64,000 bases of DNA from Bacteroidales bacterium (GTDB lineage: Bacteria; Bacteroidota; Bacteroidia; Bacteroidales; JAADGE01). Below, in pieces: positions 1 to 47,083 of this stretch (its first letter is position 1; each line of letters begins with the position of its first letter). A program made the position numbers and the translations under genes. The notes beneath the pieces were generated by a model. That model did not search any database and was not told the DNA's origin. It saw only the letters and a program-made list of their open reading frames with translations. Location of the stretch: the NCBI GenBank assembly GCA_021648725.1, contig JAKISF010000002.1, positions 32,002-96,001 on the forward strand, given 5' to 3'.

Positions 1-125
1 GCTTTTTCAAAAGAAGTCATTATGTAAAAGAAATTGATTTGACAAAAGTTTCAAGCGGGTTTTATACCATTAAAATAAAATCTAAAAAATATACGGAGGC
101 ATTAAAATTAATATTAAGCAATTAA
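1..125 (+). CDS. 3' end of an upstream gene; the tail resembles a T9SS (Por) C-terminal sorting domain
   Basis: The frame starting at nt 3 is open from the window edge to TAA at 123-125. It reads FFKRSHYVKEIDLTKVSSGFYTIKIKSKKYTEALKLILSN*, which fits the usual G-x-Y-x-hydrophobic-K ... K-hydrophobic ending of Bacteroidota T9SS cargo. It is too short for the ORF track. Confidence 0.5.
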   Translation, partial: FFKRSHYVKEIDLTKVSSGFYTIKIKSKKYTEALKLILSN

Positions 126-143
126 ATTGTAAAATATTATAAA

Positions 144-3100
144 ATGGGACTCTTTTCAAAAAATCGAACTAAAATATTGTTGATAGGAATCATTTCATTT
201 GCTTTAATATTTATATCGGTAGGAAAAAATGATTTAATAGTCAACTCAATATTCTTGTTTAAAAAGAGTCCTAAGTCTGATGCACCGCATAATGTTACAT
301 GCAATGCTTGTCATATTACACACACAAGCCCTGGTATTTCATTAACTTCGGTGCAAGGAAATGCTAATTTATGTATGAGTTGCCATAATCCTCTCGGAAC
401 AGCAGCCGCAAAAACAATATCAAATGCTGATAAAGCCGTCCCGGGAGTTTCCGGAACATCTCATTCATGGGATATATCAGCAATAAGCAGCACATATGAT
501 GCCCAGCTTCCGGTAAACCCCGCAATGCTTTCACGTATATTAAATGATACAATTATTTGCTCAACCTGTCATAATCAACATTCTCAAACATATACTTTCT
601 TTTTAAGAGCCAACAATACAGGCGATGCAATTTGTAAAGATTGCCATTTGCCGAGAAACATCGGCCGGTATGAAGACGATAATATAAACAACAGAGGAAG
701 TCATCCTGTCGGACTTACATATGACGGAAATGACCCTCGTTTCTTTTCTTCACCGTCTGCACCTTTACAAATTTTAGATTCAAAGATTGAATGTTCAAGT
801 TGTCATAAGCTGCATTTTTCTGCTACAAATGACGGAAATCTTTTAAGGATAACAAATGATGATAACTTATGTCAAAGTTGCCATACATATACAGGACATA
901 TTACAATGGGTTGCAATACCTGCCATCAAGTTCACAACAGCAACAAATCTAATATTTATCTGATAAAAGACACAATAAGCACTCCCAACAGCGGCAACAT
1001 ATCTGTTGTTTTTACTTCAACAAATGGTACTAATTCTTTTGCTGACGGGGATTTAACCTACGACGGAATTTGTGAAGCGTGTCACACAACAACAAACTAT
1101 CATCAAAATAATACAGCAGGAAACCACACACATAACGTAGGTACAAATTGTATAAATTGCCATTCACATCAAAATAACTTCCTGCACGGCGGAGATTGTA
1201 AAAAATGTCATGGCCATGATGCCGGTTATGAATATGAACCCGGTCTTTATTGTGTAGGAAACGGCACTTTTCAAAGTCATTCTACCCATACAGAAATTGA
1301 TACAGATGATCTAATCGGACCGAACATCAGCTGTGAAACCTGTCATGACACAACAGATTTTCCTTATTTCATTTCCGGAACTGATGTAAATGCAGATACA
1401 AGATTCGATTTATCAGAAACAGATGTTTGTGATAATTGCCACAGCCCGGGAGGTCTTTTTGACGGCGTTAACAATAATAACCTCGGAGCAAAAAACAATT
1501 GGAATAACGGAATTTATTCCGGAAACAATCTTCAATCAGGAAAAAACAATTGGTGTGCAACATGCCACGACTCAGACAGAGCAAGCAGTAACCAAGACGG
1601 AACAGGAACTCCGGCTCCGGATGTTGCCGGCGATTCAATAAATTACGGCTACTATTATTCCGGACACGGAAAAAATCAGATAATAAATTGTACTGATTGC
1701 CATGACCCTCTAAGTAGTCATTTAGACGGAAACATAAGAACATACACATTCTCTGATGCAATTGCTAATTTAACCGGCTCAGAATATCGAGCAGGCTACA
1801 GATTAAAACAAATAAACGGACTTGAACCTATGCGTATTCCTCTGAACGATCCTTTAATCTCTCAACTTGACTCTGCAAACTTCAGATTATGTATCAGTTG
1901 CCATAATTGGGACAGCATTTCAAGTAACACGGTTCCTTATTCAACAAATTTTAATCATTCGGGAGCAAATGCGGCTTATTCTTTCGGATATGGCGTTGTT
2001 ACGGAAAGAAACAATCATTTATTCAATCATCTGGATTTTCAAGCACACGGAAGAATTGAGCCTTATTGGGATTCTGATTGGGATAGTAATACAACAGCAA
2101 CAGTAGCAGGAAGTTCAAACCCGGAAGTTAACGGTTATGATTCATATATCACATGCGTTACCTGCCATGATGTTCACGGAGGACAAGCATTCGGAGGAAA
2201 TACTGAAGGAAATATGATGCGAGACGGAAGACTGCAAAACAGGGAACCGGGTCTTAAATTTACTTTTCTTATAGAAGCTGCAGGAGGCTTACCTTTAGTT
2301 ACATCTGTAGGTGCAAATAAGGAAAACAGTATAGGAGGTGTAATAAGAAGCGGTGTTGACTATAGAGCCGGGTATAATGATGCAATTCCTCAGGCAAATG
2401 CAATATGCGGCGGTTGTCATTCTGAAACTTATCCTGTTACAGATGAATATAATGCTTCCGGAAACGGAGGAAACAGCTGTACTCCTTGTCATCCGTTTTC
2501 TTCTTCCTCCAATTATTATATGGAATATTACAGAGTTCCGAAGCCTTTGAGTTGTACGCTTTGCCACGAACAACCTCCTGACGGAGCAAGTTTCCCGAAT
2601 TCATCAGGTTCTCATGAAACTCACATGAACAGTACTAAAGGACCTAACATTTCCGACTGCTCTGTTTGTCATGCAAGTTCAGGGAATGTTACTCACATTA
2701 ATCAAATTGCAAGCTTTGCCTCCGGAATTGACTCTGACGGTAACGGAAACATAGAACTTTCTGAAACCGATGTATGTAATAATTGTCACAGCCCCGGCGG
2801 TACTTATGACGGAGTAAATGATCCAGAAATCGGAGCAAAAAACAATTGGCAATCCGGCGTTTATTCAGGCAACGATTTAACGGCAGGTAAAGAAAAATGG
2901 TGTGCAACATGCCACGATGAAAACCCTGCAAACAGTATGTATGACGGAACGGGAATTTTTGCATCAAAAGTTATCGGAGATGAAAGTGCATCATATATAT
3001 ACGGAACAGGTTACGGTTATTATAAAACAGGACACGGATTACCCGATACTGTAAGCTATCCTGCAAGCGGCGGTGTTACAAGCGGAGCCGGACTAACTTG

Positions 3101-6050
3101 CAGTGCTTGTCATGATTACTCCTCTGTACACATTGATCATATTCAACGAACATTTAACGACGGAGATGTCAGTACAACAAGTCCGAGCACATACACGGCA
3201 GGGTATCGTTTAAAATTAATAGGCGGTCTTGACCCGATGCAAATACCGTTAGCTCTAAATACTGTTCCTTTGAATAACAGCAATCAGTTTTTATTATGCT
3301 ACAGTTGTCACAATTCCGGTCCGTTTTTAACTTCTTCTGATATGAATACAAATTTGGTAACAGACGGAATAAACAGACATGAATATCATTTGAGAATGAA
3401 TCAAATAAGATATTCATCTGATTGGGACGGTAATTTAAACAGCAGAATAACTTGTGTTTCATGTCACAATGTGCATGGTTCAAAATTCTTAACAATGGTT
3501 AGGGACGGAGAACTTATTGACAGCGTACCCGGTTTACAAATTTGGTATAATAATGATGCAATTGCAACATACAACACCTCTAACCCTGAGCCGCCGGAAC
3601 CTCAAAACATAGACCTTGCAGCAAGTACCGGCACTGTTTGGATCGGCAGAAGTTCAAGTAACTTATGTACTCATTGTCACAATAACGGAAATACAACACC
3701 CGAATACAGAAATCCTTATCAAGATGTAAATATTGCTCCTTGGTTGGAATGGGCAGGAGATTTAGATTTTGAAAATGACGGAGTAACGGCTGACACAGCA
3801 AAAGCAAATTCTGATTTTCTTTTCAGGGTTAATTATTTTGATGTCAACAATGATTTTCCGTCAATATATAAGATGTTAGCAGATGTAAACGGAGACGGAA
3901 TTACAGATTCTGTTGATATGATTGTTAAAGAAGGTGATAATAATTTTACCGACGGAAGTACATATTACAAAACTATAAATATAACTCGCCCTGCAAACGG
4001 TTCCGGAAACGTAGATTATAAGTTTTACTTTGTTTCTACTGATTCAGTTGCAACGGGTGAGCCTACAATCAATCATCAGTTTTATGTTGAAAATAATTCC
4101 CCGACATTAAACTGGGCAGGTAATTTATTTTTTGAATCTGACGGAATCCACCCAAATACCGGACCTGTCGGAAATTTCGATTTTGAGATTGTATATACTG
4201 ATATTGACGGCGACAATCCGTCAACAATGAATCTGATTATAGATGGTGTCTTACCCGGATATACGATGACAGCCGGAACAGGAAGTGTTGTATCCGGAAG
4301 AACATACTCAACAACTGTTTCAATTGCAACACCCGGAAATCACACATACCGTTTCTTTGCTGTTGATAATGCAATATGGGGAGATACTGCGATTTTTGAA
4401 ACCCTACCTGTAACAAACAATTCATTTACGGTTACAAATACCGCAAACAATGTTCCTACGCTTGATTATGAAAACAGTTCATGCTTTACAAAAAGTGTAA
4501 TGCCTGTACGTGGTCCTGTTGATGGAGATTATGATTTCAACATTGTTTATACAGATTTAGATAATGAAGTTCCTGTTGAGATAAAAGTTGTTGTTGACGG
4601 CACAAATGAATACCCGCTTTCTCCGATAAGCGGAAACATTTTAACAGGAATGACATACGGTACAACAATACAGATAAATAGTGCAGGGGAGCATTATTAT
4701 AATTTTTATGCAAATGACGGAATAGATATTGCAATCGGAGAACCGACAATACTAAACGGAGATACATTAATCGTAATTAACGCTTTGAAAGTCAAGCTTA
4801 ATGACACTCGACCCGGTTGGTACGGATCAATTCAATCGGCAATTGATGCTTTTTCAGATACTATAATAATGGTATATCCGGATACTTATAATGAAAAACT
4901 CAGTTTCTTAGGTACGGGTGATGATAAAATAATATTGGAAGCAGTTTGTTCTCCCGAAAATACAATTATTGATTCAACCGGAAATACAATTTTTATTCAA
5001 AATGTGCCTACATATACAAAGATAATCGGATTTACTGTAACCGGAGGAACAAACGGAATTTATATTAACAACGGGAAAACAGAAATTATCGACTGCATAA
5101 TCAGAAATAATACCGAAAGAGGTATTAATTCCGGTAATCCGGGAAATATTTTGACCGTTTCGAACACAACAATAAGAAATAATAATGCAAGCGGAACAAG
5201 TGCAAATATATACGGAGCAGGTATATTTTTCAACGGCGGGACATCCCATATTATATCAGGGTGTATTATCAAAAATAACCATGCCTCAGTAAGAGGCGGA
5301 GGTGTATATGCACAAAATATCAGTAGCGGAAATCTGACTTTAATAAATACAGAAGTTTCCGATAATATTTCTGATAATGCCGGAGGCGGAATAGGTGTTA
5401 ATGCTGCAAATATTGTTATTGACAAATGTAAGATATTCTCAAATACAGCTTCAGGGACAAGTGTTGCCGGAGGATTGTTTGCCCAAGGAACAGCTTACTC
5501 TGTTGACATAACAAACAGTATTTTTGCAAACAATGCAGGCAAAGACGGCGGAGCCTTTTGGTTTAATTCCGATATGATTGTTTCAATTGCAAACTCAGTA
5601 TTCACGGAAAATACAACTTCTGACCTAATCGGAGGAAGGGGCGGAGCATTATTTACTTATGACAGCGACCCGACAATAATTAATTCTATTTTTTGGAACA
5701 ATACTGCCGGCAGTAATTATCAAACGGGGCATGATTGTTATGCACATCAATCCGGTTCAGTTTTTACAATTACATATAGTGACTTGATAAACAACAAAGC
5801 AATGTTATCGGGTAGCGGAACGTTTAATGTCGGCTCAAATAACATAGGGTATAATCCTCAATTTGAAAATCCCTCGTTAAAAGATTATCGACTAAAATCT
5901 GTTTCTCCGTGTATTGATATAGGAACTTCAGTAAATGCTCCGTTTGATGATATTAACGGAAAAATAAGAGGTTTTGACGGCAGAGGAGACGGAAATATTA
6001 CCGGAGACTCATCAGATTATGATATAGGTGCTTATGAATATGCCCCGTAA
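144..6050 (+). CDS. giant multihaem c-type cytochrome (26 CxxCH) fused to three Ig-like repeats and a C-terminal right-handed parallel beta-helix domain
   Basis: 1968-aa ORF with an N-terminal hydrophobic anchor/signal (ILLIGIISFALIFISVG). I count 26 CxxCH motifs up to nt ~3680 (CNACH ... CTHCH), many as CxxCHxxH. Three ~110-120 aa repeats follow at nt ~3735-4790 (WAG.L.FE.DG ... Y.F.A.D). Nt ~4790-6050 shows repeated N-N-x-A/GGG turns typical of parallel beta-helices and ends DYDIGAYEYAP. Confidence 0.9.
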   Translation: MGLFSKNRTKILLIGIISFALIFISVGKNDLIVNSIFLFKKSPKSDAPHNVTCNACHITHTSPGISLTSVQGNANLCMSCHNPLGTAAAKTISNADKAVPGVSGTSHSWDISAISSTYDAQLPVNPAMLSRILNDTIICSTCHNQHSQTYTFFLRANNTGDAICKDCHLPRNIGRYEDDNINNRGSHPVGLTYDGNDPRFFSSPSAPLQILDSKIECSSCHKLHFSATNDGNLLRITNDDNLCQSCHTYTGHITMGCNTCHQVHNSNKSNIYLIKDTISTPNSGNISVVFTSTNGTNSFADGDLTYDGICEACHTTTNYHQNNTAGNHTHNVGTNCINCHSHQNNFLHGGDCKKCHGHDAGYEYEPGLYCVGNGTFQSHSTHTEIDTDDLIGPNISCETCHDTTDFPYFISGTDVNADTRFDLSETDVCDNCHSPGGLFDGVNNNNLGAKNNWNNGIYSGNNLQSGKNNWCATCHDSDRASSNQDGTGTPAPDVAGDSINYGYYYSGHGKNQIINCTDCHDPLSSHLDGNIRTYTFSDAIANLTGSEYRAGYRLKQINGLEPMRIPLNDPLISQLDSANFRLCISCHNWDSISSNTVPYSTNFNHSGANAAYSFGYGVVTERNNHLFNHLDFQAHGRIEPYWDSDWDSNTTATVAGSSNPEVNGYDSYITCVTCHDVHGGQAFGGNTEGNMMRDGRLQNREPGLKFTFLIEAAGGLPLVTSVGANKENSIGGVIRSGVDYRAGYNDAIPQANAICGGCHSETYPVTDEYNASGNGGNSCTPCHPFSSSSNYYMEYYRVPKPLSCTLCHEQPPDGASFPNSSGSHETHMNSTKGPNISDCSVCHASSGNVTHINQIASFASGIDSDGNGNIELSETDVCNNCHSPGGTYDGVNDPEIGAKNNWQSGVYSGNDLTAGKEKWCATCHDENPANSMYDGTGIFASKVIGDESASYIYGTGYGYYKTGHGLPDTVSYPASGGVTSGAGLTCSACHDYSSVHIDHIQRTFNDGDVSTTSPSTYTAGYRLKLIGGLDPMQIPLALNTVPLNNSNQFLLCYSCHNSGPFLTSSDMNTNLVTDGINRHEYHLRMNQIRYSSDWDGNLNSRITCVSCHNVHGSKFLTMVRDGELIDSVPGLQIWYNNDAIATYNTSNPEPPEPQNIDLAASTGTVWIGRSSSNLCTHCHNNGNTTPEYRNPYQDVNIAPWLEWAGDLDFENDGVTADTAKANSDFLFRVNYFDVNNDFPSIYKMLADVNGDGITDSVDMIVKEGDNNFTDGSTYYKTINITRPANGSGNVDYKFYFVSTDSVATGEPTINHQFYVENNSPTLNWAGNLFFESDGIHPNTGPVGNFDFEIVYTDIDGDNPSTMNLIIDGVLPGYTMTAGTGSVVSGRTYSTTVSIATPGNHTYRFFAVDNAIWGDTAIFETLPVTNNSFTVTNTANNVPTLDYENSSCFTKSVMPVRGPVDGDYDFNIVYTDLDNEVPVEIKVVVDGTNEYPLSPISGNILTGMTYGTTIQINSAGEHYYNFYANDGIDIAIGEPTILNGDTLIVINALKVKLNDTRPGWYGSIQSAIDAFSDTIIMVYPDTYNEKLSFLGTGDDKIILEAVCSPENTIIDSTGNTIFIQNVPTYTKIIGFTVTGGTNGIYINNGKTEIIDCIIRNNTERGINSGNPGNILTVSNTTIRNNNASGTSANIYGAGIFFNGGTSHIISGCIIKNNHASVRGGGVYAQNISSGNLTLINTEVSDNISDNAGGGIGVNAANIVIDKCKIFSNTASGTSVAGGLFAQGTAYSVDITNSIFANNAGKDGGAFWFNSDMIVSIANSVFTENTTSDLIGGRGGALFTYDSDPTIINSIFWNNTAGSNYQTGHDCYAHQSGSVFTITYSDLINNKAMLSGSGTFNVGSNNIGYNPQFENPSLKDYRLKSVSPCIDIGTSVNAPFDDINGKIRGFDGRGDGNITGDSSDYDIGAYEYAP

Positions 6051-6112
6051 TTATTCTCGAGAAGGGATAATTTTAAATAAAAAAACGTATATTAGTAAAA
6101 AATAATGAAAAT

Positions 6113-8635
6113 ATGAAGACTTTTACAAAAAACAAAAACAGATTATTTGCAATATTAGTAATATTATTCAGCAGCATTGTTATAGCTTTAAGTATGAATA
6201 ATTTTTCTTTGAATTCAATACTCAACTCAAAGGTTAACCCGAAATCAGATTTTCCGCATAACTTTACGTGTAATGCATGCCACATTCTGCACACAAGCCC
6301 CGGAATATCATTAACATCTGTTCAGGGTAATGCAAATCTTTGTATGAGTTGTCATAATCCCACTGGTGTCGCAAATTTAAAACCTTTTTCAGTTAATGAT
6401 AAAGCTGTTCCGGGTACAAAAGGAACTTCACACTCATGGGATGTATCTGGTATAAATAACCTTTATGCTGCAAACCTCCCGACAGAAGCAAATATGCTTT
6501 TACGCATTATAAATGATACAATTATTTGTTCAACATGTCATAATCAACATTCTCAAGCATTTACTCCTTTTTTAAGAGCTGACAATACAGCAGATGCAAT
6601 GTGCAAAGATTGCCACTCGGCAAGAAATCTCGGATTATATGCTACTGATAATACAAATAACAGAGGAACACATCCTGTCGGAGTAGTTTATAACGGTGCA
6701 GATTCTCGGTTATTCTCTGTGCCTAATGCCCCGCTTCTCGCAATAGGCGGAAATGTTGAATGTTCAAGTTGTCATAAATTACATTATGCAACAACTACTG
6801 ACGGAAATCTGTTAAGAAAAACAAATGATGCAAGTTTATGCACATCTTGCCATGTATATAAAAACTTCGGAACATCATTAGACCATGAAAGTATGACTTG
6901 TGTAACTTGTCATTATGCACATCAAAACAATTCCGGTAATATTTTCTTAGTCCGAGATGTAATTAATACTCCTAACAGCGGAGCTCAAAATGTCGTTTTT
7001 ACGGCAAATACAAGTGCTGATAATTATGCAGACGCAACAGGTACTTTCGACGGTGTTTGTGAAGTTTGCCATACACTTACCGACCATTATACAAATACAA
7101 CAGGCGGAACCGCTGATGCAAGACATGTTCCCGCAACCCAAACATGTATATCTTGTCACCCTCACGATAATGCTTTTTATGCTCAGTCAAACTGCTTCGA
7201 TTGTCACAACACCGTTCAAGATAAGCCCGCTGTAGGACCTGTCGGAGGAAGAAGGCAAATTGTAGATGACAGCGGCGACGGGCTCGGAACAGGGGGTGAT
7301 TTTAAAAGATCATCACATCATGTATCAGGAGCAATTCCGAATGTAAGTGATTGTTTAAAATGCCATTATATGGGAGATCATAAAAACGGAGAGGTTAAAT
7401 TATTTGATCCTGACCAAGGATATTTAAATGTAATAACTTACGACCCGGTAAACAAAGCAAGTATCGAAGATTTTTGTCTGAATTGTCATGATGCCGACGG
7501 TTCTAACGGAGATACAACTCCTTTCAGTGACGGCATTGCAGTACCGTTGGTTGATAAAACTTTATGGAACGGTTCTTCTCACAAAACAAGTGTTTATACT
7601 TGTCTTGATTGCCATGACAACGGACACGGTTCTAATAAAAGCAAATTACTCGAACCTTTTGATTATACTGCAGATGCAACTCCCGACCCGATGAATGACC
7701 AAGAAGAATTCTGTGAAAGATGCCACAGTGCAGCAGGTGCAGCAACATCAGATATCGAATCTGAATTTAACCTTACTCATTCTCATCAAGTTGATGAAGT
7801 TGCAGAAATGGGAACAAATTCAGGTCTTGAATGTATTAATTGTCATAATCCGCATCAAAATACCGCAGTAAACCCTGTCAGCGACCCTGATAATAATGCA
7901 ACCCTAATGTCAATCAATAACGGAGCAAACGGAACACGAGATTTCTGTTTACGTTGTCATGACGGAACACCTCCTGCCGGCATTTCTTTCCCCGCAACTT
8001 CTTACGGCACGGGGTGGAATAAATCAAGTTATGTTAGTTCTCGCCACGATGCAACAATAAATATCGGCGAAACAAATTTTACGGGAACAAAAGATGATTG
8101 TTTATCGTGTCATCAGCATCACGCTGCCTCCGGTGTTGCAGAAACAAATAAAACAGGAATATACACCATGATACGAGGCAAATACGACAAAAGCGGTAAT
8201 GCAACCTCTGATGCTTGTAATCCGTGGGATAATAACGATAACGGAGATTACCAATTATGTTGGGATTGCCATTTTAAAGAAATGGTTGATAAGAATGACG
8301 GAACTTATGGTGTAAATGCCTTTGATGACAGGCATGACACACATGTTGACGGAGAAGAATCTCCGTGTATCATTTGTCATGATGTGCATAATCCTTATGA
8401 TATAGGCGAACCTGGACATATAAATTTTGTATATGGTTCAAGTGCAAAAGCAAGTAACGATAATAATTTATTCAGCGGTCAGTCCGGCTCATTTTATATC
8501 TCCGGTTCCAGAGGATACTGTAGTTTAAGGTGTCATGAAACATTTTCAGGCGGCTGCGGCAGAAAAGGGCATAACCCTAAAAATTACGATCGTTTTCCGC
8601 TTACATATCCGTGGGGGTATTTGTGGCCGAAATAA
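6113..8635 (+). CDS. multihaem c-type cytochrome (19 CxxCH plus one CxxxCH), paralog of the upstream gene
   Basis: 840-aa ORF with an N-terminal hydrophobic segment (LFAILVILFSSIVIALS). The first ~365 aa are collinear with the 144..6050 product, carrying the same 10 haem motifs in the same order. The alignment starts at residue 43 in both (P-K-S-D-x-P-H-N-x-T-C-N-A-C-H). The C-terminal half is different but still haem-rich (CLKCH ... CIICH, then CSLRCH). Confidence 0.9.
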   Translation: MKTFTKNKNRLFAILVILFSSIVIALSMNNFSLNSILNSKVNPKSDFPHNFTCNACHILHTSPGISLTSVQGNANLCMSCHNPTGVANLKPFSVNDKAVPGTKGTSHSWDVSGINNLYAANLPTEANMLLRIINDTIICSTCHNQHSQAFTPFLRADNTADAMCKDCHSARNLGLYATDNTNNRGTHPVGVVYNGADSRLFSVPNAPLLAIGGNVECSSCHKLHYATTTDGNLLRKTNDASLCTSCHVYKNFGTSLDHESMTCVTCHYAHQNNSGNIFLVRDVINTPNSGAQNVVFTANTSADNYADATGTFDGVCEVCHTLTDHYTNTTGGTADARHVPATQTCISCHPHDNAFYAQSNCFDCHNTVQDKPAVGPVGGRRQIVDDSGDGLGTGGDFKRSSHHVSGAIPNVSDCLKCHYMGDHKNGEVKLFDPDQGYLNVITYDPVNKASIEDFCLNCHDADGSNGDTTPFSDGIAVPLVDKTLWNGSSHKTSVYTCLDCHDNGHGSNKSKLLEPFDYTADATPDPMNDQEEFCERCHSAAGAATSDIESEFNLTHSHQVDEVAEMGTNSGLECINCHNPHQNTAVNPVSDPDNNATLMSINNGANGTRDFCLRCHDGTPPAGISFPATSYGTGWNKSSYVSSRHDATINIGETNFTGTKDDCLSCHQHHAASGVAETNKTGIYTMIRGKYDKSGNATSDACNPWDNNDNGDYQLCWDCHFKEMVDKNDGTYGVNAFDDRHDTHVDGEESPCIICHDVHNPYDIGEPGHINFVYGSSAKASNDNNLFSGQSGSFYISGSRGYCSLRCHETFSGGCGRKGHNPKNYDRFPLTYPWGYLWPK

Positions 8636-8645
8636 ATTATAAAAA

Positions 8646-8690
8646 CTAATCTGCTTAAAGAAAAAAGTATAATTTCTTTAAGCAGATTAG
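8646..8690 (+). terminator. long perfect hairpin after the cytochrome pair
   Basis: CTAATCTGCTTAAAGAAA (8646-8663) and TTTCTTTAAGCAGATTAG (8673-8690) form a perfect 18-bp inverted repeat with a 9-nt loop, 11 nt after the stop codon. No clear T-run follows. Confidence 0.55.
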
Positions 8691-9506: not shown

Positions 9507-9559
9507 TTACGTATTTATAGGTTTCTCCATCGGAAATTTATAACATATAACAATCAAAG

Positions 9560-9587
9560 CCGGTATTTTAATCAATACCGGTTTTTG
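9560..9587 (+). terminator. rho-independent terminator after rpmF
   Basis: CCGGTATT (9560-9567) pairs with AATACCGG (9574-9581) and is followed by TTTTT. Confidence 0.7.
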
Positions 9588-15703: not shown

Positions 15704-16351
15704 ATGAAAGTACACCGATTAGTTTTCAGTTCATTTGAAGTTAACACTTACATTGTCAGCGATAAATCTAACGAATGTGTTATTATTGACCCTGCTTGCA
15801 AGAATAAACAAGAGCAAAATTATTTACTGAACTTTTTGAAGGAACAACGTTTAAAACCGGTAAAATTATTAAACACGCATTGCCATCTCGATCACGTTTT
15901 TGGGAATAAATTTGTAAGCGATACATTCAACCTTGAAACCGAAGCACATAAAGAAGAAGAATTTAATATTACAAATTCTGTCAATGCAGCAAATCTTTAC
16001 GGTGTACAAATGGAAAAACCTTACCCGGTAAAAAAATTTCTTAAAGAAGGCGATAAAATTAAGTTCGGGGTTTCAGAATTAGAAATGTTTCACGTCCCGG
16101 GGCATACAGCAGGAAGTATCGTTTTTTATAATAAAAAAGAAAAACTTGCAATAGTCGGAGATGTTCTTTTTAACGGCAGCATAGGAAGAACCGATCTTCC
16201 CGGCGGAGATTTCGATACTTTAATAAACGGCATAAAAACCAAATTATTTAAATTGGACGATTCGGTAACGGTATATCCGGGACACGGTCCGGCAACAAGC
16301 ATAGGAAAAGAAAAACAAACCAATCCGTTTTTATCCGGAACTCAATTATAA
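15704..16351 (+). CDS. MBL-fold metallo-hydrolase (glyoxalase II-like)
   Basis: THCHLDHVFG metal-binding motif, HVPGHTAGS, and GD.LF.GSIGRTD. Confidence 0.88.
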   Translation: MKVHRLVFSSFEVNTYIVSDKSNECVIIDPACKNKQEQNYLLNFLKEQRLKPVKLLNTHCHLDHVFGNKFVSDTFNLETEAHKEEEFNITNSVNAANLYGVQMEKPYPVKKFLKEGDKIKFGVSELEMFHVPGHTAGSIVFYNKKEKLAIVGDVLFNGSIGRTDLPGGDFDTLINGIKTKLFKLDDSVTVYPGHGPATSIGKEKQTNPFLSGTQL

Positions 16352-16498
16352 ACTGTTATCTCTTTTCTTAAACTATGTTTAAAAAATACTTTTTTTATTG
16401 ATAATTATCACCTCAAACAAAATAGTAATTACTAATTTTACTGAAAAACAGAAAAGAAATATAAGTATTTTATTTAACTTATAATAAGCACATTAACC

Positions 16499-19366
16499 AT
16501 GCAAACAGATAGGTTTTCAAATCGTCACATCGGCCCTCGCAACAATGACATTAAAGATATGTTATCAACAATCGGTTTAAATTCCGTTGATGAATTAATT
16601 GATAAAATTGTTCCTGATTCTATTCTTTTGAAAAAAGAATTAAAACTTGATAAAGCAATAAGTGAATATGATTATCAAAAGAATATTGCAAAAATAATTG
16701 CAAAAAATAAAATATATAAAACATATATAGGAACGGGATATTACAATACAATAAGCCCTGCCGTTATTATCAGAAATGTTCTTGAAAACCCTGTTTGGTA
16801 CACTTCTTACACACCTTATCAGGCAGAAATTTCACAAGGAAGATTAGAAGCTCTTTTAAATTTCCAAACCGTTATTACCGAATTAACAGCTTGCGAAATT
16901 GCAAATGCTTCTTTATTAGATGAAGCAACAGCAGCATCCGAAGCAATGATAATGATGGCAAATTCTCGTAACCGAAAAGCTGTTAAAGAAGGAACAAATG
17001 TTCTTTTTGTTGACGAAAACATTTTTCCGCAAACATTAGAAGTGATTCTCGGTAAAGCTGAGCCTTTGGACATTAAAATTGAAACCGGCAGCTTTAAAAG
17101 TTGCGAACTACATGATAAAATTTTTGGTGCAATAATTCAATATCCTGCAAATGACGGAAAAATTTATAATTATTCCGAGTTCACAAAAGCAGCACATGAA
17201 AAAGGAATTTTAGTAAGTGTCGCAGCTGATTTATTAAGCCTTGCAATTTTAACTCCTCCCGGAGAATGGGATGCCGACATTGTTTTCGGCACAACACAAC
17301 GTTTCGGAATTCCTATGGGCTACGGCGGACCTCATGCAGCATATTTTGCAACAAGAGAAAATTTCAAAAGAAAAATTCCCGGCAGAATTATAGGTGTTTC
17401 AAAAGATGTTCACGGTAACAAAGCATTACGTATGGCATTGCAAACTCGCGAGCAGCATATAAAACGAGAAAAAGCAACCTCAAACATTTGTACGGCACAG
17501 GCTCTTTTAGCAACAATGGCAGGGATGTATGCTGTTTATCACGGAAAAGAAGGTTTGATTGATATTGCTTCATCAATTCATGCAAAAGCAAACATTATTT
17601 CCGAACAAATTACAAAACTCGGCTATAAACAAGAAAATGAAAATTATTTTGACACACTAAAAATACAACTTCCCGATTCAGTACCGGTAAAAGAGCTTAA
17701 AAAAATTGCAATTAAGAAAAAAGTAAATTTCAGATATTTTTCCGAAAATAGAATAGGAATAAGTATAAACGAAACAACTTCAATTCTTGATATAAACAAT
17801 ATACTTCGTGTATTTTCATTAGCAATCGGGAAAGACATTAAAAAAATTACTAAAATTGAAAATAGTTTCAGCTTTAATTCAAAATTTAAACGGCGAACAT
17901 CTTTTTTAAAGCAGGACGTTTTCAAAAAATATCATTCCGAAACAGAAATGATGCGCTACATTAAAATGCTTGAACGCAAAGATATGTCATTAACACATTC
18001 TATGATTTCTTTGGGTTCTTGCACAATGAAACTTAACCCTGCAACTCTGATGATGCCTTTAAGCAGTCCGTATCTTGGAGAAATTCATCCTTTTGTTCCG
18101 AAAAATCAAGCAAAAGGTTATCATCAGATATTTGAAGAACTAAAAAATGATTTATTAGAAATCACAGGTTTTGATGATATTACATTTCAGCCTAATTCCG
18201 GAGCATCGGGAGAATACACCGGACTAATGATTATCAGAGAATACCAAAAAACAACTATAGAAGAAAACAGGAATATTGTACTAATTCCGGCATCTGCTCA
18301 CGGTACAAATCCGGCAAGTGCAGTTATGGCAGGTATGGAAGTTGTTATTGTTAAATGCGATGAAAACGGTAATATTGATGTTGAAGATTTAAAAGCAAAA
18401 GCAGAAGAGCATAAAGAAAATTTATCTGCAATGATGATTACATATCCTTCTACACACGGTGTGTTTGAAACAGAAGTTGTTGAGATGTGTAAAATAATTC
18501 ACAAAAACGGAGGGCAAGTATATATGGACGGTGCAAACATGAACGCACAAGTAGGAATAACAAATCCGGCAAAAATTGGTGCTGATGTTTGCCACCTTAA
18601 CTTACATAAAACATTTGCAATTCCTCACGGCGGAGGCGGTCCCGGAGTAGGTCCCGTTGCAGTTGCAAAACACCTTTCAGGATTCTTACCCGGACACCCG
18701 ACAGTAAAAACAGGAGGAAAAAATGCAATTAAAGCTGTTTCGGCAGCACCTTGGGGCAGTGCAAGTATTCTTGGTATCACACACGGATACTTGAAAATGT
18801 TGGGAGCAGACGGGCTGCTTAATTCAACAAAAACAGCAATTTTAAATGCAAATTATATTGCCGCTTCCTTAAAAAACTATTTTAAAATTCTTTATACCGG
18901 AAAAAACGGTTATGTTGCACATGAAATGATTTTAGAATGTCGAAACTTCAAACAAGAAGCCGATATAAATGAAGCCGACATAGCAAAACGGCTTATGGAT
19001 TACGGCTTTCATGCTCCTACACTTTCATTTCCCGTTCACGGAACATTAATGGTTGAGCCTACGGAGAGCGAGTCGAAACAAGAAATGGATAAGTTCATTG
19101 AATCAATGATTTCAATATACAACGAAATTCAAGACATAAAAAACGGCAAATGTGATAAACATGATAATATGTTGAAAAATGCACCACATTGCGAGCAAGT
19201 GCTAATTTCTGACAACTGGGAACATAAATATTCCCGAGAAACAGCGGCTTATCCTTTATCGCATATCAGAACAAATAAGTTTCAAATTCCGGTAGGCAGG
19301 ATTGATGATGCATACGGTGACCGAAATTTGTTTTGTACATGCGACCCCGTTGAAAGTTTTGAATGA
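16499..19366 (+). CDS. gcvP: glycine dehydrogenase (decarboxylating), single-chain P protein
   Basis: 955 aa. Contains FSNRHIGP, YTPYQAEISQGRLEALLNFQT, and the PLP-lysine region HLNLHKTFAIPHGGGGPG. Confidence 0.96.
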   Translation: MQTDRFSNRHIGPRNNDIKDMLSTIGLNSVDELIDKIVPDSILLKKELKLDKAISEYDYQKNIAKIIAKNKIYKTYIGTGYYNTISPAVIIRNVLENPVWYTSYTPYQAEISQGRLEALLNFQTVITELTACEIANASLLDEATAASEAMIMMANSRNRKAVKEGTNVLFVDENIFPQTLEVILGKAEPLDIKIETGSFKSCELHDKIFGAIIQYPANDGKIYNYSEFTKAAHEKGILVSVAADLLSLAILTPPGEWDADIVFGTTQRFGIPMGYGGPHAAYFATRENFKRKIPGRIIGVSKDVHGNKALRMALQTREQHIKREKATSNICTAQALLATMAGMYAVYHGKEGLIDIASSIHAKANIISEQITKLGYKQENENYFDTLKIQLPDSVPVKELKKIAIKKKVNFRYFSENRIGISINETTSILDINNILRVFSLAIGKDIKKITKIENSFSFNSKFKRRTSFLKQDVFKKYHSETEMMRYIKMLERKDMSLTHSMISLGSCTMKLNPATLMMPLSSPYLGEIHPFVPKNQAKGYHQIFEELKNDLLEITGFDDITFQPNSGASGEYTGLMIIREYQKTTIEENRNIVLIPASAHGTNPASAVMAGMEVVIVKCDENGNIDVEDLKAKAEEHKENLSAMMITYPSTHGVFETEVVEMCKIIHKNGGQVYMDGANMNAQVGITNPAKIGADVCHLNLHKTFAIPHGGGGPGVGPVAVAKHLSGFLPGHPTVKTGGKNAIKAVSAAPWGSASILGITHGYLKMLGADGLLNSTKTAILNANYIAASLKNYFKILYTGKNGYVAHEMILECRNFKQEADINEADIAKRLMDYGFHAPTLSFPVHGTLMVEPTESESKQEMDKFIESMISIYNEIQDIKNGKCDKHDNMLKNAPHCEQVLISDNWEHKYSRETAAYPLSHIRTNKFQIPVGRIDDAYGDRNLFCTCDPVESFE

Positions 19367-19435
19367 TTAATTTCTGTTTGTCTTTAGAAGCTGTTAAAAA
19401 ATAAAGATTTTTAACACAAGAAGACAAAAAATGAA

Positions 19436-20938
19436 TTAACCTTTTTTTGCAGACAATAGTCTCAGGTACAGCTTTTCTTTTAAAACAACGAAAATTATAA
19501 AGCTCAAAATAAAACCTGTGTTTACTAAATACTTAACAGAGCCTTTAAATTCAAAAAATAAACTTCCGGCGTAGATTGCTCCGGCAAACAGTACATAAAT
19601 AAATATATCTTTTAAGGGGTAGTTTATTCTGTAATATTTTCTTCCTAAGAAATATGAAATAATCATCATTGCCAAATAGCAAGAAAAATGAGCCCATGCC
19701 GAACCGAGATAACCGAAAACAGGAATTAACACCGTGTTTACGCCAATGGTTATTAATGCCCCTACTCCTGCGATGTATGCTCCGTATTTAGTTTTATCGG
19801 TAAGCTTAAACCAAACAGATAAATTATATACAACACCCAAAAACAAATTGGCAACCAGCAAAATCGGTATAATATCCAAGCCCACCCAATAACTTTCATT
19901 GCTGATGAAATATTTAACAATATCAATATAAAGCATTATGCTTAAGAAGATAAATAATCCGAAAATCACAAAATATTTCATTACTGCAGCATAAACTTTT
20001 TTTGCATTTTCTTTTTTCTCTTGGCTGAAAAAGAATGGTTCCGCAGCATATCTGAAAGCTTGAATAAACAAAATAACCAAAACAGACAATTTATAGTTTG
20101 CTCCGTATATTCCTATTTGCGACATAACATATTCATGAGCGTTTTCAATTCCTTCGGGAATAACAATTAGGTATTTTAATAAAATCCTGTCGATTACTTC
20201 ATTAATCATTCCCGCCAAACCTGCGAACAACAAAGGGAAGCCGTAAAACAAAAGTTGTTTTAATAACTTTTTTGAAAAAATAAGTTTAGCTTTTAAAAAA
20301 TCAGGTAAAAATAATAACAGCGTAACGGAAGATGCAATTAAATTAGAAATGAAAATATATCCTATACCTATGTTCTTCGAATAAAAGCCGGAAATAAAAG
20401 AATCGGGATTGTTTTCTGATAAAATAGGACATAACAGTAAGAAAAATAAATTTAACCCTATGTTTAACCCTATATTTATAAATTTAAAGGTTACAAATTT
20501 AATTGCTTTATTTTCCCGTCTTAATTTAGCAAACGGAATTGCAGTTATTGAATCAAGCCCGATAATAAAAGCAAACCAAACGATATATTCAACATTATCA
20601 GGGTATTGCAAGGTGTCAGCAATAGATTTTGAAAACAAAATTACAACTGCAATAAAAAGACTTGAAGTAAAAAGAATAGGTGAAACAGCTGTTGAAAAAA
20701 CTTTTGAGGGGTTGTCGTGTTTTTCGGAAAACCTGAAGTATGCAGTTTCCATTCCGTATGTTAAAAAAACCATTAAAAATCCGGCATAGGCAAATAATTC
20801 TGTAACAATCCCGTATTCAGACGTTACAAACAGGCTTGTGTATAACGGAACCAGAAGGTAATTTAAAAACCTTCCGACAATACTGCTTAAACCGTAAACA
20901 GCTGTTTGTCCTATCAGTTTTTTTATCGGACTTGCCAT
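19436..20938 (-). CDS. oligosaccharide/polysaccharide flippase (MOP/Wzx family)
   Basis: 500 aa with ~12-14 TM helices. The N-terminus (LIGQTAVYGLSSIVGRFLNYLLVPLYT) is typical of Bacteroidota polysaccharide biosynthesis flippases. Confidence 0.75.
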   Translation of the reverse strand: MASPIKKLIGQTAVYGLSSIVGRFLNYLLVPLYTSLFVTSEYGIVTELFAYAGFLMVFLTYGMETAYFRFSEKHDNPSKVFSTAVSPILFTSSLFIAVVILFSKSIADTLQYPDNVEYIVWFAFIIGLDSITAIPFAKLRRENKAIKFVTFKFINIGLNIGLNLFFLLLCPILSENNPDSFISGFYSKNIGIGYIFISNLIASSVTLLLFLPDFLKAKLIFSKKLLKQLLFYGFPLLFAGLAGMINEVIDRILLKYLIVIPEGIENAHEYVMSQIGIYGANYKLSVLVILFIQAFRYAAEPFFFSQEKKENAKKVYAAVMKYFVIFGLFIFLSIMLYIDIVKYFISNESYWVGLDIIPILLVANLFLGVVYNLSVWFKLTDKTKYGAYIAGVGALITIGVNTVLIPVFGYLGSAWAHFSCYLAMMIISYFLGRKYYRINYPLKDIFIYVLFAGAIYAGSLFFEFKGSVKYLVNTGFILSFIIFVVLKEKLYLRLLSAKKG

Positions 20939-42717: not shown

Positions 42718-45216
42718 ATGACACATACATATAAAATTGACGGCATGACCTGCATGGGTTGTAAAACTAGTGTTGAAGATGCTCTGAATTCTCTTAACGA
42801 AATTACCGATTTAAAAGTAAACTTAAAGAAGTCGGAAGTTACAATTGAAATGTCGAAACACATCTCGCTTGAAAAATTGCAGGAAACCCTGATGAAAGCT
42901 GGCTTACATTATACAATTCAGATGCCCGGTAACGAGCCCGTAAACAAACACGAACATAAACACCATATTAAGAAAGCAGATTTTAATAAAACCGGTATTT
43001 TTTACTGCCCGATGCAATGCGAAGGTGATAAAACTTATGATAAATTCGGAGCATGTCCAAAATGCGGAATGGATTTGATAGAGCAAAAACAAGTAAGTAC
43101 GAAAACAGAATATACTTGTCCTATGCACCCGGAAGTTATTAAAGATGTTCCCGGTGCTTGTCCTAAATGCGGAATGGATTTAGTTCCGAAAGAACCCGAA
43201 GAAAGTGAAGAGGACAAAACCTATTTGAAACTTCTTAAAAAAATGAAGATAGCTGTAATTTTTACTGTCCCTATCTTTCTTATTGCAATGGCGGATATTC
43301 TGCCTAATAATCCTTTGTCTGATATTACAAATCAGCAAAATTGGAATATATTGCAATTAATATTATCCTTGCCTGTTGTTTTTTATGCAACTCGAATGTT
43401 CTTTGAAAGAGCCTGGACATCAATCGTTACTTGGAACTTAAATATGTTCACGCTTATAGGCATCGGTGCGGGTGTTGCTTTTATATTCAGCATATTTGCA
43501 CTGTTTTTTCCGGATATTTTCCCTGCTCAATTTAAAACCGACAGCGGAACAGTATATGTTTATTTCGAGGCAGTTACCGTAATTCTTACATTGGTTCTTC
43601 TCGGGCAGCTTTTGGAAGCAAAAGCACACAGTAAAACAAGCGGAGCAATAAAAGAACTTATGAAGTTAGCTCCGACAGAAGCAACCGTAATTATTGACGG
43701 TGTTGAAAAAGTAATTTCAATTCACGATATAAAAAAAGGTGATTTAATTCGGGTTAAACCCGGTGAGAAAATTCCCGTTGACGGAATTATTACAGAAGGC
43801 GGCAGCCATATTGACGAAAGTATGATTACCGGTGAACCTGTTCCCGTAGATAAAACAATTAACGATAATGTCAGTTCCGGAACAATTAACGGTAATAAGT
43901 CTTTTGTAATGAAAGCCGAAAAAGTAGGTTCCGAAACTTTATTGTCGCAAATAATAAAATTGGTTAACGAAGCAAGTCGCTCGCGTGCACCTATCCAAAA
44001 ACTTGCCGATAAAATTTCAAAATACTTTGTACCTATCGTAGTGGTCATTGCCGGAACTACATTTGCCGTATGGGCAATTTTCGGTCCCGAGCCGGCTTAC
44101 GTTTATGCTTTTGTGAATGCAGTTGCCGTTCTTATTATTGCTTGCCCTTGTGCATTGGGGCTTGCAACGCCTATGGCGGTTATGGTAGGTGTGGGCAAAG
44201 GTGCTCAATCCGGAATTTTAATAAAAAATGCCGAAGCCATTGAAAAAATGGACAAAATCAATGTTTTGATTACCGATAAAACAGGAACACTTACCGAAGG
44301 TAAACCCTCTGTCGAGAAAATTGTTGCTCTAAATGCCGGTAAAGAAGAATATTTATTACAAAAAGCAGCATCTTTAAATTCACAAAGTGAACATCCGCTT
44401 GCCGAGGCAGTTGTGAAATATGCAAAAAATAAAAAAATTGCTTTAAATGAAGCTGAAAATTTTGAATCCGTTACCGGAAAAGGTGTTATCGGAGTTGTTG
44501 CAGGAGAAAATATTGCGATAGGAAATTCAAAATTAATGTCCGAAATCGGTGCGGATATACCCGAAAACTTAAAAAATCAAGTTGAAAAAGAACAAAAACT
44601 TGGTAAAACGGTTTCATATATTGCAGAAAATAAAAATGTTGCCGGTTTTATTACCATAAGCGATGCAATTAAGAAAACAAGCAAAGAAGCTGTTCAAGAA
44701 CTTATCCGACAAGGTGTTGAAGTAATTATGCTTACAGGCGACAATAAAAATACTGCAAAAGCAGTTGCCGATGAACTTAACATCTCCGGCTTTAAAGCCG
44801 AATGTATGCCCGAAGATAAACTCAATGAAATAAAACGATTGCAAGCCGAAGGTAAAATTGTTGCAATGGCGGGCGACGGAATAAATGATGCTCCGGCTCT
44901 GGCACAATCCGATATCGGTATTGCTATGGGAACCGGCACGGATGTCGCAATTGAAAGCGGCGAAATCACATTAATGAAAGGCGATTTAAACGGTATTGTT
45001 AAAGCCAAAAAGTTAAGTCATTCTATAATGAAAAACATCAAACAAAACTTATTTTTTGCATTTATTTATAATGTATTAGGTGTCCCGATTGCCGCAGGTG
45101 TATTATTCCCGGTATTCGGACTTTTATTGTCACCTATGATTGCAGCAGCAGCCATGAGCTTCAGTTCTGTTTCGGTAATTACAAATTCTTTACGATTAAA
45201 AAATCTGAAATTGTAA
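42718..45216 (+). CDS. copA: copper(I)/silver-translocating P1B-type ATPase
   Basis: N-terminal HMA (GMTCMGC). Two C-P-x-C-G-M-D-L zinc-ribbon-like metal-binding modules follow (YCPMQCEGD...CPKCGMDL; CPMHPEV...CPKCGMDL). The TM CPC motif (ACPCALGLATP), DKTGTLT, MLTGD and GDGINDAP are all present. Confidence 0.96.
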   Translation: MTHTYKIDGMTCMGCKTSVEDALNSLNEITDLKVNLKKSEVTIEMSKHISLEKLQETLMKAGLHYTIQMPGNEPVNKHEHKHHIKKADFNKTGIFYCPMQCEGDKTYDKFGACPKCGMDLIEQKQVSTKTEYTCPMHPEVIKDVPGACPKCGMDLVPKEPEESEEDKTYLKLLKKMKIAVIFTVPIFLIAMADILPNNPLSDITNQQNWNILQLILSLPVVFYATRMFFERAWTSIVTWNLNMFTLIGIGAGVAFIFSIFALFFPDIFPAQFKTDSGTVYVYFEAVTVILTLVLLGQLLEAKAHSKTSGAIKELMKLAPTEATVIIDGVEKVISIHDIKKGDLIRVKPGEKIPVDGIITEGGSHIDESMITGEPVPVDKTINDNVSSGTINGNKSFVMKAEKVGSETLLSQIIKLVNEASRSRAPIQKLADKISKYFVPIVVVIAGTTFAVWAIFGPEPAYVYAFVNAVAVLIIACPCALGLATPMAVMVGVGKGAQSGILIKNAEAIEKMDKINVLITDKTGTLTEGKPSVEKIVALNAGKEEYLLQKAASLNSQSEHPLAEAVVKYAKNKKIALNEAENFESVTGKGVIGVVAGENIAIGNSKLMSEIGADIPENLKNQVEKEQKLGKTVSYIAENKNVAGFITISDAIKKTSKEAVQELIRQGVEVIMLTGDNKNTAKAVADELNISGFKAECMPEDKLNEIKRLQAEGKIVAMAGDGINDAPALAQSDIGIAMGTGTDVAIESGEITLMKGDLNGIVKAKKLSHSIMKNIKQNLFFAFIYNVLGVPIAAGVLFPVFGLLLSPMIAAAAMSFSSVSVITNSLRLKNLKL

Positions 45217-46345: not shown

Positions 46346-46606
46346 AGTAATCAGATACCTGAATAGTCTGTTTTTTTTTATAAATAAACCTAATAGAATA
46401 GATTATACTTCCGGAATTTAACCTCCGATACAGCAAAACGATTATTGTAAATACACTTTGTGTCGACAAATAACTTATCTAATCGTACCTGATATAAAAA
46501 AACTCGCATAACAATAAAATACATTTTCATACAAATATATTTTATACAATAATAAAACATATCTTCATCCGAATATACTTTATATAACAGTTTAAACAAA
46601 AATAAT

Positions 46607-47083
46607 ATGAAACAAAAAAAAACAATTACATACATTGCGTTTTTGCTCTTAGGAATAGGAGGATTACACGCACAAGAAAGCCCGGTTGCCGCAGGCGGTA
46701 AGGCAACAGGAGCTGGCGGAACAGTCAGTTACTCCGTAGGACAAGTAGTTTATACTGCTCACACGGGCACAACAGGAAGCATTTCACAAGGTGTTCAACA
46801 ACCTTACGAAATTTATACAACAGTAGGAATAAACGAAATATCTGTCAATTTGGAACTTTCCGTTTATCCCAATCCTACCGACGGTTATTTAACTTTAAAA
46901 TCAGAAGACAGCAGCAATTTGAGTTATCAATTATTTAACATACAAGGAAAAATAATTGAAGACAAAATAATAAGCAGCACTTCTACAGACATTAGTTTGG
47001 AAAGCCAAGCATCAGCCGCTTACTTTTTAAACGTATTAAAAAATAACCAAGTAATAAAAACATTTAAAATAATCAAAAACTAA
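46607..47083 (+). CDS. small secreted T9SS cargo protein (type A sorting domain)
   Basis: Signal peptide ending LHAQ, then a Gly-rich AAGGKATGAGGTVSYSVGQVVYT module. The T9SS CTD reads LSVYPNPTDGYLTLK ... AAYFLNVLKNNQVIKTFKIIKN. Confidence 0.8.
   Translation: MKQKKTITYIAFLLLGIGGLHAQESPVAAGGKATGAGGTVSYSVGQVVYTAHTGTTGSISQGVQQPYEIYTTVGINEISVNLELSVYPNPTDGYLTLKSEDSSNLSYQLFNIQGKIIEDKIISSTSTDISLESQASAAYFLNVLKNNQVIKTFKIIKN

Follow-up and report, generated by a model that had tools for sequence, protein, structure and literature searches.

We describe a pair of adjacent multihaem cytochrome genes at the start of a 64,000-nucleotide (nt) stretch of DNA (hereafter the window) from contig JAKISF010000002.1 of a Bacteroidales bacterium (GenBank assembly GCA_021648725.1), an organism of Bacteroidota/Chlorobiota type with a GC content of ~33-36%. 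The pair, here called gene 1 and gene 2, follows the end of a gene for an NHL beta-propeller protein, and both products begin with the same kind of ten-haem module before continuing into different C-terminal parts (Table 1). Judged by sequence comparison, this module, which has 9-10 haems across its relatives, is the family-defining unit of a widespread and uncharacterised family of giant, probably Sec-exported cytochromes. The two open reading frames (ORFs) and the 62-nt gap between them, as given in a preliminary description of this DNA, were re-derived identically.

Table 1. Features of the cytochrome locus, in window coordinates (aa, amino acids)
Feature	Position	Strand	Description
3' end of partner gene	3..125	+	Last 40 codons and stop; NHL beta-propeller/Ig/PKD protein with type IX secretion C-terminal sorting domain
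Gene 1	144..6050	+	Multihaem c-type cytochrome, 1968 aa, 26 CxxCH; Pfam Paired_CXXCH_1, Cytochrome_C7, Beta_helix
Gene 1 signal peptide	144..224	+	Predicted from translation; residues 1-27; n-region KNRTK, 17-residue hydrophobic core, S-V-G before likely cleavage site
Shared 10-haem module, gene 1	270..1211	+	Residues 43-356; from BLASTP, motif positions and alignment
A-type six-haem unit, copy 1	1275..2267	+	Residues 378-708; internal duplication; homologous units follow the module in many relatives
Three-haem linker	2268..2609	+	Residues 709-822; CxxCH at 755, 779, 804; 68% identity in P0059
A-type six-haem unit, copy 2	2610..3548	+	Residues 823-1135; internal duplication
Three repeated ~130-aa all-beta units	3744..4973	+	Residues 1201-1610; presumed Ig-like; mutual identity 29-37%
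Right-handed beta-helix	4974..6047	+	Residues 1611-1968; ends in a borderline choice-of-anchor Q domain
Gene 1-gene 2 gap	6051..6112		62 nt, without terminator-like hairpin
Gene 2	6113..8635	+	Multihaem cytochrome, 840 aa, 19 CxxCH and one CX3CH
Shared 10-haem module, gene 2	6239..7207	+	Residues 43-365; from BLASTP and motif positions
'2-type' tail of gene 2	7208..8632	+	Residues 366-840; nine CxxCH; homologues in 24 proteins of several phyla
CSLRCH	8519..8536	+	Residue 803, near gene 2 C-terminus; atypical CX3CH haem-binding motif
Perfect 18-bp hairpin	8646..8690	+	Probable transcript end; -22.8 kcal/mol, z = -7.0

Two paralogous cytochromes with one N-terminal design

Comparison of gene 1 residues 1-356 with gene 2 residues 1-365 by BLASTP gave 205/365 identities (56%; 69% positives; E 9e-128). 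The homology starts as early as the signal peptide, the P of the PKSD motif is residue 43 in both proteins, and the first ten CxxCH motifs are collinear (residues 53, 77, 139, 164, 217, 243, 257/263, 310/316, 336/345 and 352/361 in gene 1/gene 2), so that both the coordinates (nt 270-1211 and 6239-7207) and the motif order originally reported for a ten-haem start from residue 43 hold. The likeness also extends well beyond the haem motifs, with 147/264 residues (55.7%) of the module identical outside CxxCH, and this rules out a collinearity of motifs alone, which the preliminary description had named as the outcome that would count against it. Past residue ~360 there is weak local similarity at most (24% identity, E 4e-4), as expected from the divergence that had been placed at residues ~350-365.

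Many of the residues that are identical between the two proteins are specified by different codons, and by the Nei-Gojobori method synonymous divergence (dS) is 1.58, which is near saturation, at a nonsynonymous divergence (dN) of 0.33. Saturation of synonymous sites indicates that the duplication is old and led us to reject recent gene conversion between the two genes. Between orthologue pairs dN is 0.11-0.18 against a near-saturated dS, which indicates that all parts of the proteins are under purifying selection. By these substitution patterns, gene 1 and gene 2 are old paralogues under purifying selection.

When the modules of seven family members (50-60% identity) were aligned, nine CxxCH motifs and nine further histidines were invariant, the latter being His49, 107, 146, 187, 224, 252, 264, 330 and 342 in gene 1 numbering. 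Nine invariant motifs matched by nine invariant extra histidines form a pattern that fits bis-His electron-transfer haems, and the haems of the module are likely to be bis-His ligated and of the electron-transfer type. A motif scan found no CxxCK or other catalytic-type haem motif in either protein, and both pass the cutoffs of the doubled CXXCH models PF09699 (93.6 and 79.6 bits, cutoff 20.6) and TIGR01905 (58.7 and 66.4 bits, cutoff 25.2). The N-termini, read from the translations, have a basic n-region, a hydrophobic core of 16-17 residues and small residues at -3/-1, features of putative Sec-type signal peptides with plausible signal-peptidase sites. The membrane-proximal position that the preliminary description supposed for the module gains no support from them.

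Behind the module, gene 1 carries an internal duplication, in which residues 378-708 match residues 823-1135 at 37% identity (E 5e-58). This repeat was visible by BLASTP after splitting the protein, the whole-protein self-comparison having returned the trivial full-length match only. The beta units, which follow haem 26, are predicted with low confidence to be all beta-strand, and protein P0076 of our survey is 69% identical to gene 1 over this region. The Pfam Beta_helix model scores E 8.4e-11, the NCBIfam choice_anch_Q model reaches 23.9 bits at the end of the protein (cutoff 25), and a scan with Pfam and NCBIfam found no type IX secretion system (T9SS) sorting domain on the C-terminal region. 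As regards the payload of gene 1, the haem count, the beta-helix and the three ~130-aa repeats previously noted therefore stand, but the Ig fold of the repeats is only presumed. The earlier reading had overlooked the end of the upstream partner gene, the synteny of propeller and module, and the internal duplication of gene 1.

The haem count of gene 2 was also as first described, and its CxxxCH motif is real and kept in homologous tails: C-x-L-x-C-H, followed by a conserved His and Tyr, is retained in at least 90% of 24 aligned 2-type tails. The C-terminus of gene 2 (8570-8632) shares with its Bacteroidota/Chlorobiota-type homologues a conserved aromatic end (...PL.YPW.Y.WPK) that is missing from the 2-type tails of other phyla and could be a short sorting or interaction tag.

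Sequence searches of the PDB returned short local matches only for the module and gene 2, and none for the C-terminal part of gene 1. Mean predicted local distance difference test (pLDDT) scores were 39.8 for an AlphaFold2 model of the module from a 13-sequence alignment and 40.0 for a single-sequence prediction of gene 1 residues 1200-1968, values too low for either model to be usable. The gene 2 protein has no exact match in the protein collection, and the metagenome scan gave no relative closer than 56% identity to the window proteins.

The hairpin that had been noted after gene 2 proved to be real. It lacks a T-run, which is why the terminator scan did not list it. Because the short gap between the genes is free of terminator-like hairpins and the strong hairpin lies behind gene 2, the two genes are probably co-transcribed.

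The propeller partner and the nearest relative

The window opens within the partner gene. The frame-3 translation of nt 3-125 (...GFYTIKIKSKKYTEALKLILSN, followed by the stop codon) aligns to positions 612-649 of a hidden Markov model (HMM) built from the partners at loci L005 and L008 (E 1.3e-8), with 19/38 residues identical to the L005 partner, which is of gene 1 type, and 7/38 to the gene 2-type partner. Only 18 nt separate the end of the partner gene from the start of gene 1 on the same strand, and gene 2 has no partner of its own within the window.

The nearest relative is the Chlorobiota metagenome-assembled genome (MAG) M_MetaBat.100, in which AccC and FabH are 85% identical to those of the window. 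Its gene 1 orthologue (L005, on contig JAADGE010000015.1) has 1968 aa, is 79% identical without gaps, and sits about 20 nt (23 nt by the locus survey) behind a 637-aa partner gene; its gene 2 orthologue (L008; 835 aa, 73% identical) lies behind its own 647-aa partner paralogue, ~29 kb away and on the opposite strand. Both of these partners comprise a six-bladed NHL beta-propeller, two Ig-like domains and a PKD domain, followed by Por_Secre_tail (PF18962, E 1e-13), and they are 45% identical to each other. Further gene 2 orthologues occur at L006 and L007, and the L008 and L006 cassettes each combine a 647-aa partner with a cytochrome of 835 or 840 aa. Since the orthologues of the relative are 29 kb apart with separate partners, the placing of gene 2 behind gene 1 is a rearrangement specific to the lineage of the window; the fatty-acid block yceD-fabH-accB-accC also lies on the other side, and in the other orientation, in the relative. 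Proteins with T9SS sorting domains end up at the cell surface, and the propeller partner in the lineage of the window is expected to sit there.

Beside the gene 1 orthologue at L005, in the relative but not in the window, positions 15939-20469 hold a cluster of five genes convergent to it. Its products are a multihaem cytochrome of 324 aa whose signal is of lipoprotein type (…LMTQC), a membrane beta-barrel of the DUF5777 family (E 7.5e-66), small c-type cytochromes of 128 and 165 aa, and an NHL propeller of 344 aa that has a hydrophobic helix at its N-terminus. Many loci also have the small NHL protein close to the cassette, and several have the 165-aa cytochrome there; the cluster may supply the outer-membrane component that the system otherwise lacks. 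At another locus (L003, 1-2708), upstream of two propeller-module cassettes, a 926-aa protein combines multihaem c-type motifs with Ni_hydr_CYTB (cytochrome b) and resembles the CbcL-type inner-membrane quinol-linked cytochromes.

Relatives across phyla

The family was surveyed by a genome scan, a metagenome scan and two protein searches, using our own ORF calling together with module and partner HMMs. Out of 1.84 billion protein representatives, 1401 score E<1e-3 to the module and 100 score E<1e-30. Carriers were found in Bacteroidota (Bacteroidales, Marinilabiliales, Cytophagia and one cultured flavobacterium), Chlorobiota-labelled MAGs, KSB1, Calditrichota and Planctomycetota, with distant or partial matches in Nitrospirota, Acidobacteriota, Gemmatimonadota, Desulfobacterota and Geobacteraceae. 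About 40 related loci have the module gene immediately after a propeller gene or, in Planctomycetota, fused to it. Where the upstream DNA is intact, nearly all module genes are preceded at a distance of 5-139 nt by a propeller gene of the same strand, or are fused to it; in a few of those loci the partner is visible only as a frameshifted or contig-truncated sorting-domain fragment. Fusions with the propeller ahead of the module were found at five planctomycete loci (L035, L036, L037, L039 and L091) and in 12 representative proteins. Besides Geobacteraceae, the clear exceptions are the second genes of tandem pairs, namely gene 2 of the window, L020 9842-13726 and L034 8224-10479.

The architectures built around the module are many. 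At ~310 aa in length, it may stand alone (P0002, 368 aa, 9 CxxCH), N-terminally in proteins with tails of 600-1968 aa, or internally behind PKD-like/Ig extensions, and it may be present in two or three tandem copies (P0050, P0051, P0053-55, P0057 and P0071). Three types of tail recur: those with the A-type unit, the 2-type tail as in gene 2, and a CxxxxCH-type tail. P0076 is gene 1-like, having a single A unit with the same beta repeats and beta-helix, and in the planctomycete proteins P0105 and L039 the propeller, module, A unit and 2-type tail follow one another in one chain. The window, M_MetaBat.100 and the L020/L026 genome each have both A-type and 2-type tails.

Three further groups of relatives deserve mention. 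The cultured flavobacterium Aestuariivivens sediminis S-DT1-15 (L032) encodes a 1403-aa partner with a sorting domain and, 5 nt downstream, a cytochrome of 1825 aa that has the module internally as well as a region of CxxxxCH type, and is a possible experimental model. Two Methanosarcinaceae archaeon MAGs (L043 and L046) match module residues ~208-315 (haems 7-10) at 53-56% identity, which indicates that part of the module is common to archaeal multihaem cytochromes. Proteins P0056, P0101 and P0108, which are distant relatives, resemble the family in the final third of the module and in the 2-type tail, and end in a FlgD_ig or weak Por_Secre_tail-like domain; in some lineages the cytochrome itself, rather than the partner, may be the sorted cargo.

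Histories of module and tail

Module identity tracks lineage more than tail type. Over the module, gene 1 and gene 2 are 60% identical to each other, gene 1 is 50-58% identical to A-type proteins of other lineages, and gene 2 is 47-60% identical to 2-type proteins of other lineages. The modules of two adjacent L020 genes, one A-type and one 2-type, are 73% identical to each other and 50% identical to those of the same-type window genes. In four-point bootstraps with 2000 replicates, based on neighbour-joining, distance-based trees, modules of one genome or lineage grouped together every time (100%), whether L020 was set against the window or against M_MetaBat.100; among closer relatives (P0059 and L034_3864) the modules grouped by tail type in 97.6%.

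Because the modules group by lineage though the tails are of two conserved types, the histories of module and tail disagree at depth. The cause would be either homogenisation of modules within genomes or repeated re-pairing of tails; trees of this kind give good evidence, although not proof. A phylogeny of the shared module against the distal modules had been proposed as a check for shuffling, and the histories it gives are incongruent and support modular recombination. Together with the many architectures, they bear out the initial idea of a shared module combined with alternative distal modules.

Comparison with known systems

The closest published counterpart in layout is that of Geobacter metallireducens, where, as in the window, an NHL gene (Gmet_0556) precedes a giant cytochrome on the same strand, with a 4-haem protein (Gmet_0557) followed by a 27-haem OmcO homologue (Gmet_0558). 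The cytochromes Gmet_0557/0558 are reported to be necessary for the reduction of Fe(III) oxide and to matter for electron transfer between species (PMC10989804); for the NHL protein Gmet_0556, an important part in extracellular iron reduction has been reported (bioRxiv 10.1101/2022.05.06.490989). Three Geobacteraceae loci of our survey (L076, L079 and L080) encode an 860-920-aa NHL protein, a ~270-aa tetrahaem protein and a 23-30-haem cytochrome, which by layout and haem counts is the arrangement of Gmet_0556-0558. The N-terminal ~370 residues of their large cytochromes align with positions 7-320 of the module HMM (94-110 bits, 25-28% identity). However, neither the window nor any Bacteroidota-type locus has a tetrahaem gene between propeller and large cytochrome, and the Geobacter-type propeller protein, unlike the partner in the lineage of the window, has no T9SS sorting domain.

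Two other systems are alike by description. In Desulfovibrio ferrophilus IS5, NHL propellers are encoded with multihaem cytochromes (DFE_0448-0451 and DFE_0461-0465; PMC5815863), as in the window, and the Uet cluster of Tenderia and Gallionella combines the NHL proteins UetH/I with the undecahaem UetJ (bioRxiv 10.1101/2022.05.06.490989; PMC10734462). Both clusters include other cytochromes, and that of Uet also a beta-barrel porin, whereas the window has neither. It has been proposed that the propellers mediate contacts between proteins and so stabilise a complex of cytochromes in the outer membrane that takes up or releases electrons (PMC5815863; bioRxiv 10.1101/2022.05.06.490989; PMC10734462). 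For some cytochromes of the D. ferrophilus NHL clusters, deletion work has called their role into question (PMC9769857).

Multihaem cytochromes in general evolve modularly, by 'grafting and pruning' (Soares et al. 2022, PMC9250108; bioRxiv 10.1101/2025.05.29.656830), and the present family likewise recombines haem-bearing units with domains that bind no haem. Over its haems 8-10 the module is similar to the repeats of GSU1996 (PDB 3ov0; E 1.7e-9), a protein built of c7-type units. In contrast to these examples, the N-terminal unit here is constant and the C-terminal parts vary, and the module appears to have been homogenised or re-paired within lineages.

The ten haems of the shared unit recall the decahaem MtrA/DmsE of the Shewanella-type porin-cytochrome complexes, and gene 1 and gene 2 have weak matches to TIGR03508 and to the Pfam MtrC/MtrF domain II/IV model. 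Identity with MtrA/DmsE (TIGR03508; 74.5 and 58.4 bits, cutoff 192.2) and with OmcA/MtrC (TIGR03507; 25.7 and 25.1 bits, cutoff 209.3) was rejected, and no MtrB-type porin gene is adjacent to gene 1 or gene 2 in the window. We also rejected an identity with the nanowire subunits OmcS, OmcE or OmcZ, the matches to 7tfs and 9yuq being confined to a motif of ~35 residues.

Discussion

The interpretation we favour, at a probability of roughly 55%, is that the shared module couples the cytochromes to the propeller, and that gene 1 and gene 2 encode parallel, probably co-transcribed conduits for extracellular or periplasm-spanning electron transfer. Synteny across phyla together with gene fusion is a classic sign of physical or functional interaction, and we propose the coupling of module and propeller because both are found here. 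The module would be the constant part, linking the cytochromes both to their propeller partners and to the electron supply upstream, and the tails would be interchangeable wire and contact parts that give wire length and contact surface. To this base gene 1 would add two six-haem units, three beta-sandwich repeats and a beta-helix that is likely to be a binding or contact domain, and gene 2 the conserved nine-haem tail and the CX3CH haem. On this view gene 1 and gene 2 would encode parallel units with a common docking solution, through which electrons would pass to or from insoluble partners.

Several observations weigh against this interpretation. Pfam and NCBIfam scans found no T9SS sorting domain, lipobox or other recognised surface-sorting signal on the gene 1 and gene 2 products, and for this reason the export of the cytochromes beyond the periplasm is presumed. 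The 64-kb window contains no porin or beta-barrel gene, no quinol dehydrogenase, and no homologue of the DUF5777 barrel or the lipoprotein cytochrome that lie near the gene 1 orthologue at L005. The partners of KSB1, Calditrichota and a few Bacteroidota are short and have no sorting domain. The proposed contact between module and propeller is drawn from synteny and fusions, with structure predictions at a pLDDT of ~40, and the Geobacteraceae loci are putative orthologues of Gmet_0556-0558 by gene layout, not by sequence.

The preliminary description had also raised the possibility that the two proteins are subunits of one 'stacked' hetero-assembly, in which they would bind one another or a single propeller at once and electrons would pass through both in series. 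The adjacency of the genes, with a 62-nt gap and no terminator between them, agrees with this, as do the single partner gene that precedes the pair in the window and the tandem pairs behind one partner that recur in L020 and L034; moreover, the planctomycete P0105 and L039 hold the A-type unit and the 2-type tail serially in one chain. We nevertheless consider such an assembly unlikely. In the closest relative ~29 kb separate the two orthologues, which lie on opposite strands and each have a partner of their own (the two partners being 45% identical), an arrangement that favours two parallel units, and L006 likewise pairs a gene 2 orthologue with its own partner. Each protein also has a complete module.

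It is distinctly unlikely, in our judgement, that the cytochromes are periplasmic electron stores, periplasm-spanning wires or part of a reductase for soluble substrates, with the propeller as a helper in assembly or maturation rather than a dock at the surface. Such a role would agree with the absence of a surface-sorting signal from gene 1 and gene 2, with the occurrence of short partners that have no sorting domain, and with the predicted periplasmic location of several cytochromes of the D. ferrophilus NHL clusters (PMC9769857). However, the beta-helix, Ig-like and PKD-like domains and the T9SS domain of the partner are typical of surface proteins, and some distant relatives bear FlgD_ig or a weak Por_Secre_tail on the cytochrome itself. 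The module, moreover, has no catalytic-type haem motif, and its nine invariant haems are each accompanied by an invariant His.

A more specific, and speculative, extension of the favoured interpretation is that the module is a docking domain for the NHL propeller, and that the T9SS-sorted propeller carries or tethers the giant cytochromes, which have no signal of this kind, to the surface. The interchangeable tails would then set the external partner, and homogenisation within genomes would keep the module matched to the propeller. We regard this as doubtful, but if true it would be a previously undescribed route for placing electron conduits outside the cell in Bacteroidota/Chlorobiota-type bacteria.

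That the module polymerises into cytochrome filaments like those of OmcS, OmcE and OmcZ is very improbable. Known filament subunits are small, with 4-8 haems, whereas the present proteins have 840-1968 aa and large non-haem domains. The local matches to OmcE (7tfs) and to the 16-chain multihaem entry 9yuq over the paired-CXXCH motif, which might suggest a filament, span only ~35 residues (E 1.6e-5 to 1.7e-3), and the full gene 2 protein gives E 0.69 against OmcE. Lastly, an artefact of assembly duplication, recent gene conversion or chance CxxCH spacing can be dismissed, given an identity of just 56-60% with saturated synonymous sites, 55.7% identity outside the motifs, and separate orthologues of each gene in other genomes.

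The kind of system to which the locus belongs, NHL-propeller-associated giant cytochromes that evolve by module exchange, is known. What is new is a module family, hitherto uncharacterised, that in many phyla is nearly always paired or fused with the propeller, together with the T9SS domain on the partner in the lineage of the window and the incongruent histories of module and tail. Extracellular electron transfer has been well worked out in Geobacter and Shewanella, but hardly in Bacteroidota, Ignavibacteria-type bacteria, Calditrichota, KSB1 and Planctomycetota, and the propeller partner with its ten-haem module is a conserved and testable unit across those phyla. Fusions of propeller and module offer a concrete basis for working out the role of NHL propellers, which published papers only suggest. 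The link to type IX secretion suggests how giant cytochromes might reach, or be held at, the surface; no paper mentioning both type IX secretion and multihaem cytochromes was found in the literature searched. The family is also a clear natural case of module re-use with incongruent histories of module and tail.

Other features of the window

Downstream of the cytochrome genes and shortly before fabH, a GC-containing hairpin of 12 bp with T's behind it lies at 9556-9585 (+). No other site in the first 9.7 kb looks more like a terminator, and a transcript of yceD, perhaps together with rpmF, probably ends here. A set of metal-handling genes (42718-45216, 56751-60557 and 61947-63689, all +) encodes a CopA-type copper P-type ATPase, a CusA/CzcA-type resistance-nodulation-division pump, and a CzcB/CusB-type adaptor with an extra C-terminal domain. 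The N-terminus of an 825-aa ORF (48514-50991, +) is weakly like the N-terminal domain of the Bdellovibrio 'mosaic adhesive trimer' fibre (E 1.7e-10; 40.9 bits, under the cutoff of 60). A small ORF at 46556-47080 (+) matches the partner HMM over its C-terminal ~80 residues, in the part of the model that covers the sorting domain (E 1.5e-5); there is no propeller in this protein, which is probably another cargo of type IX secretion.

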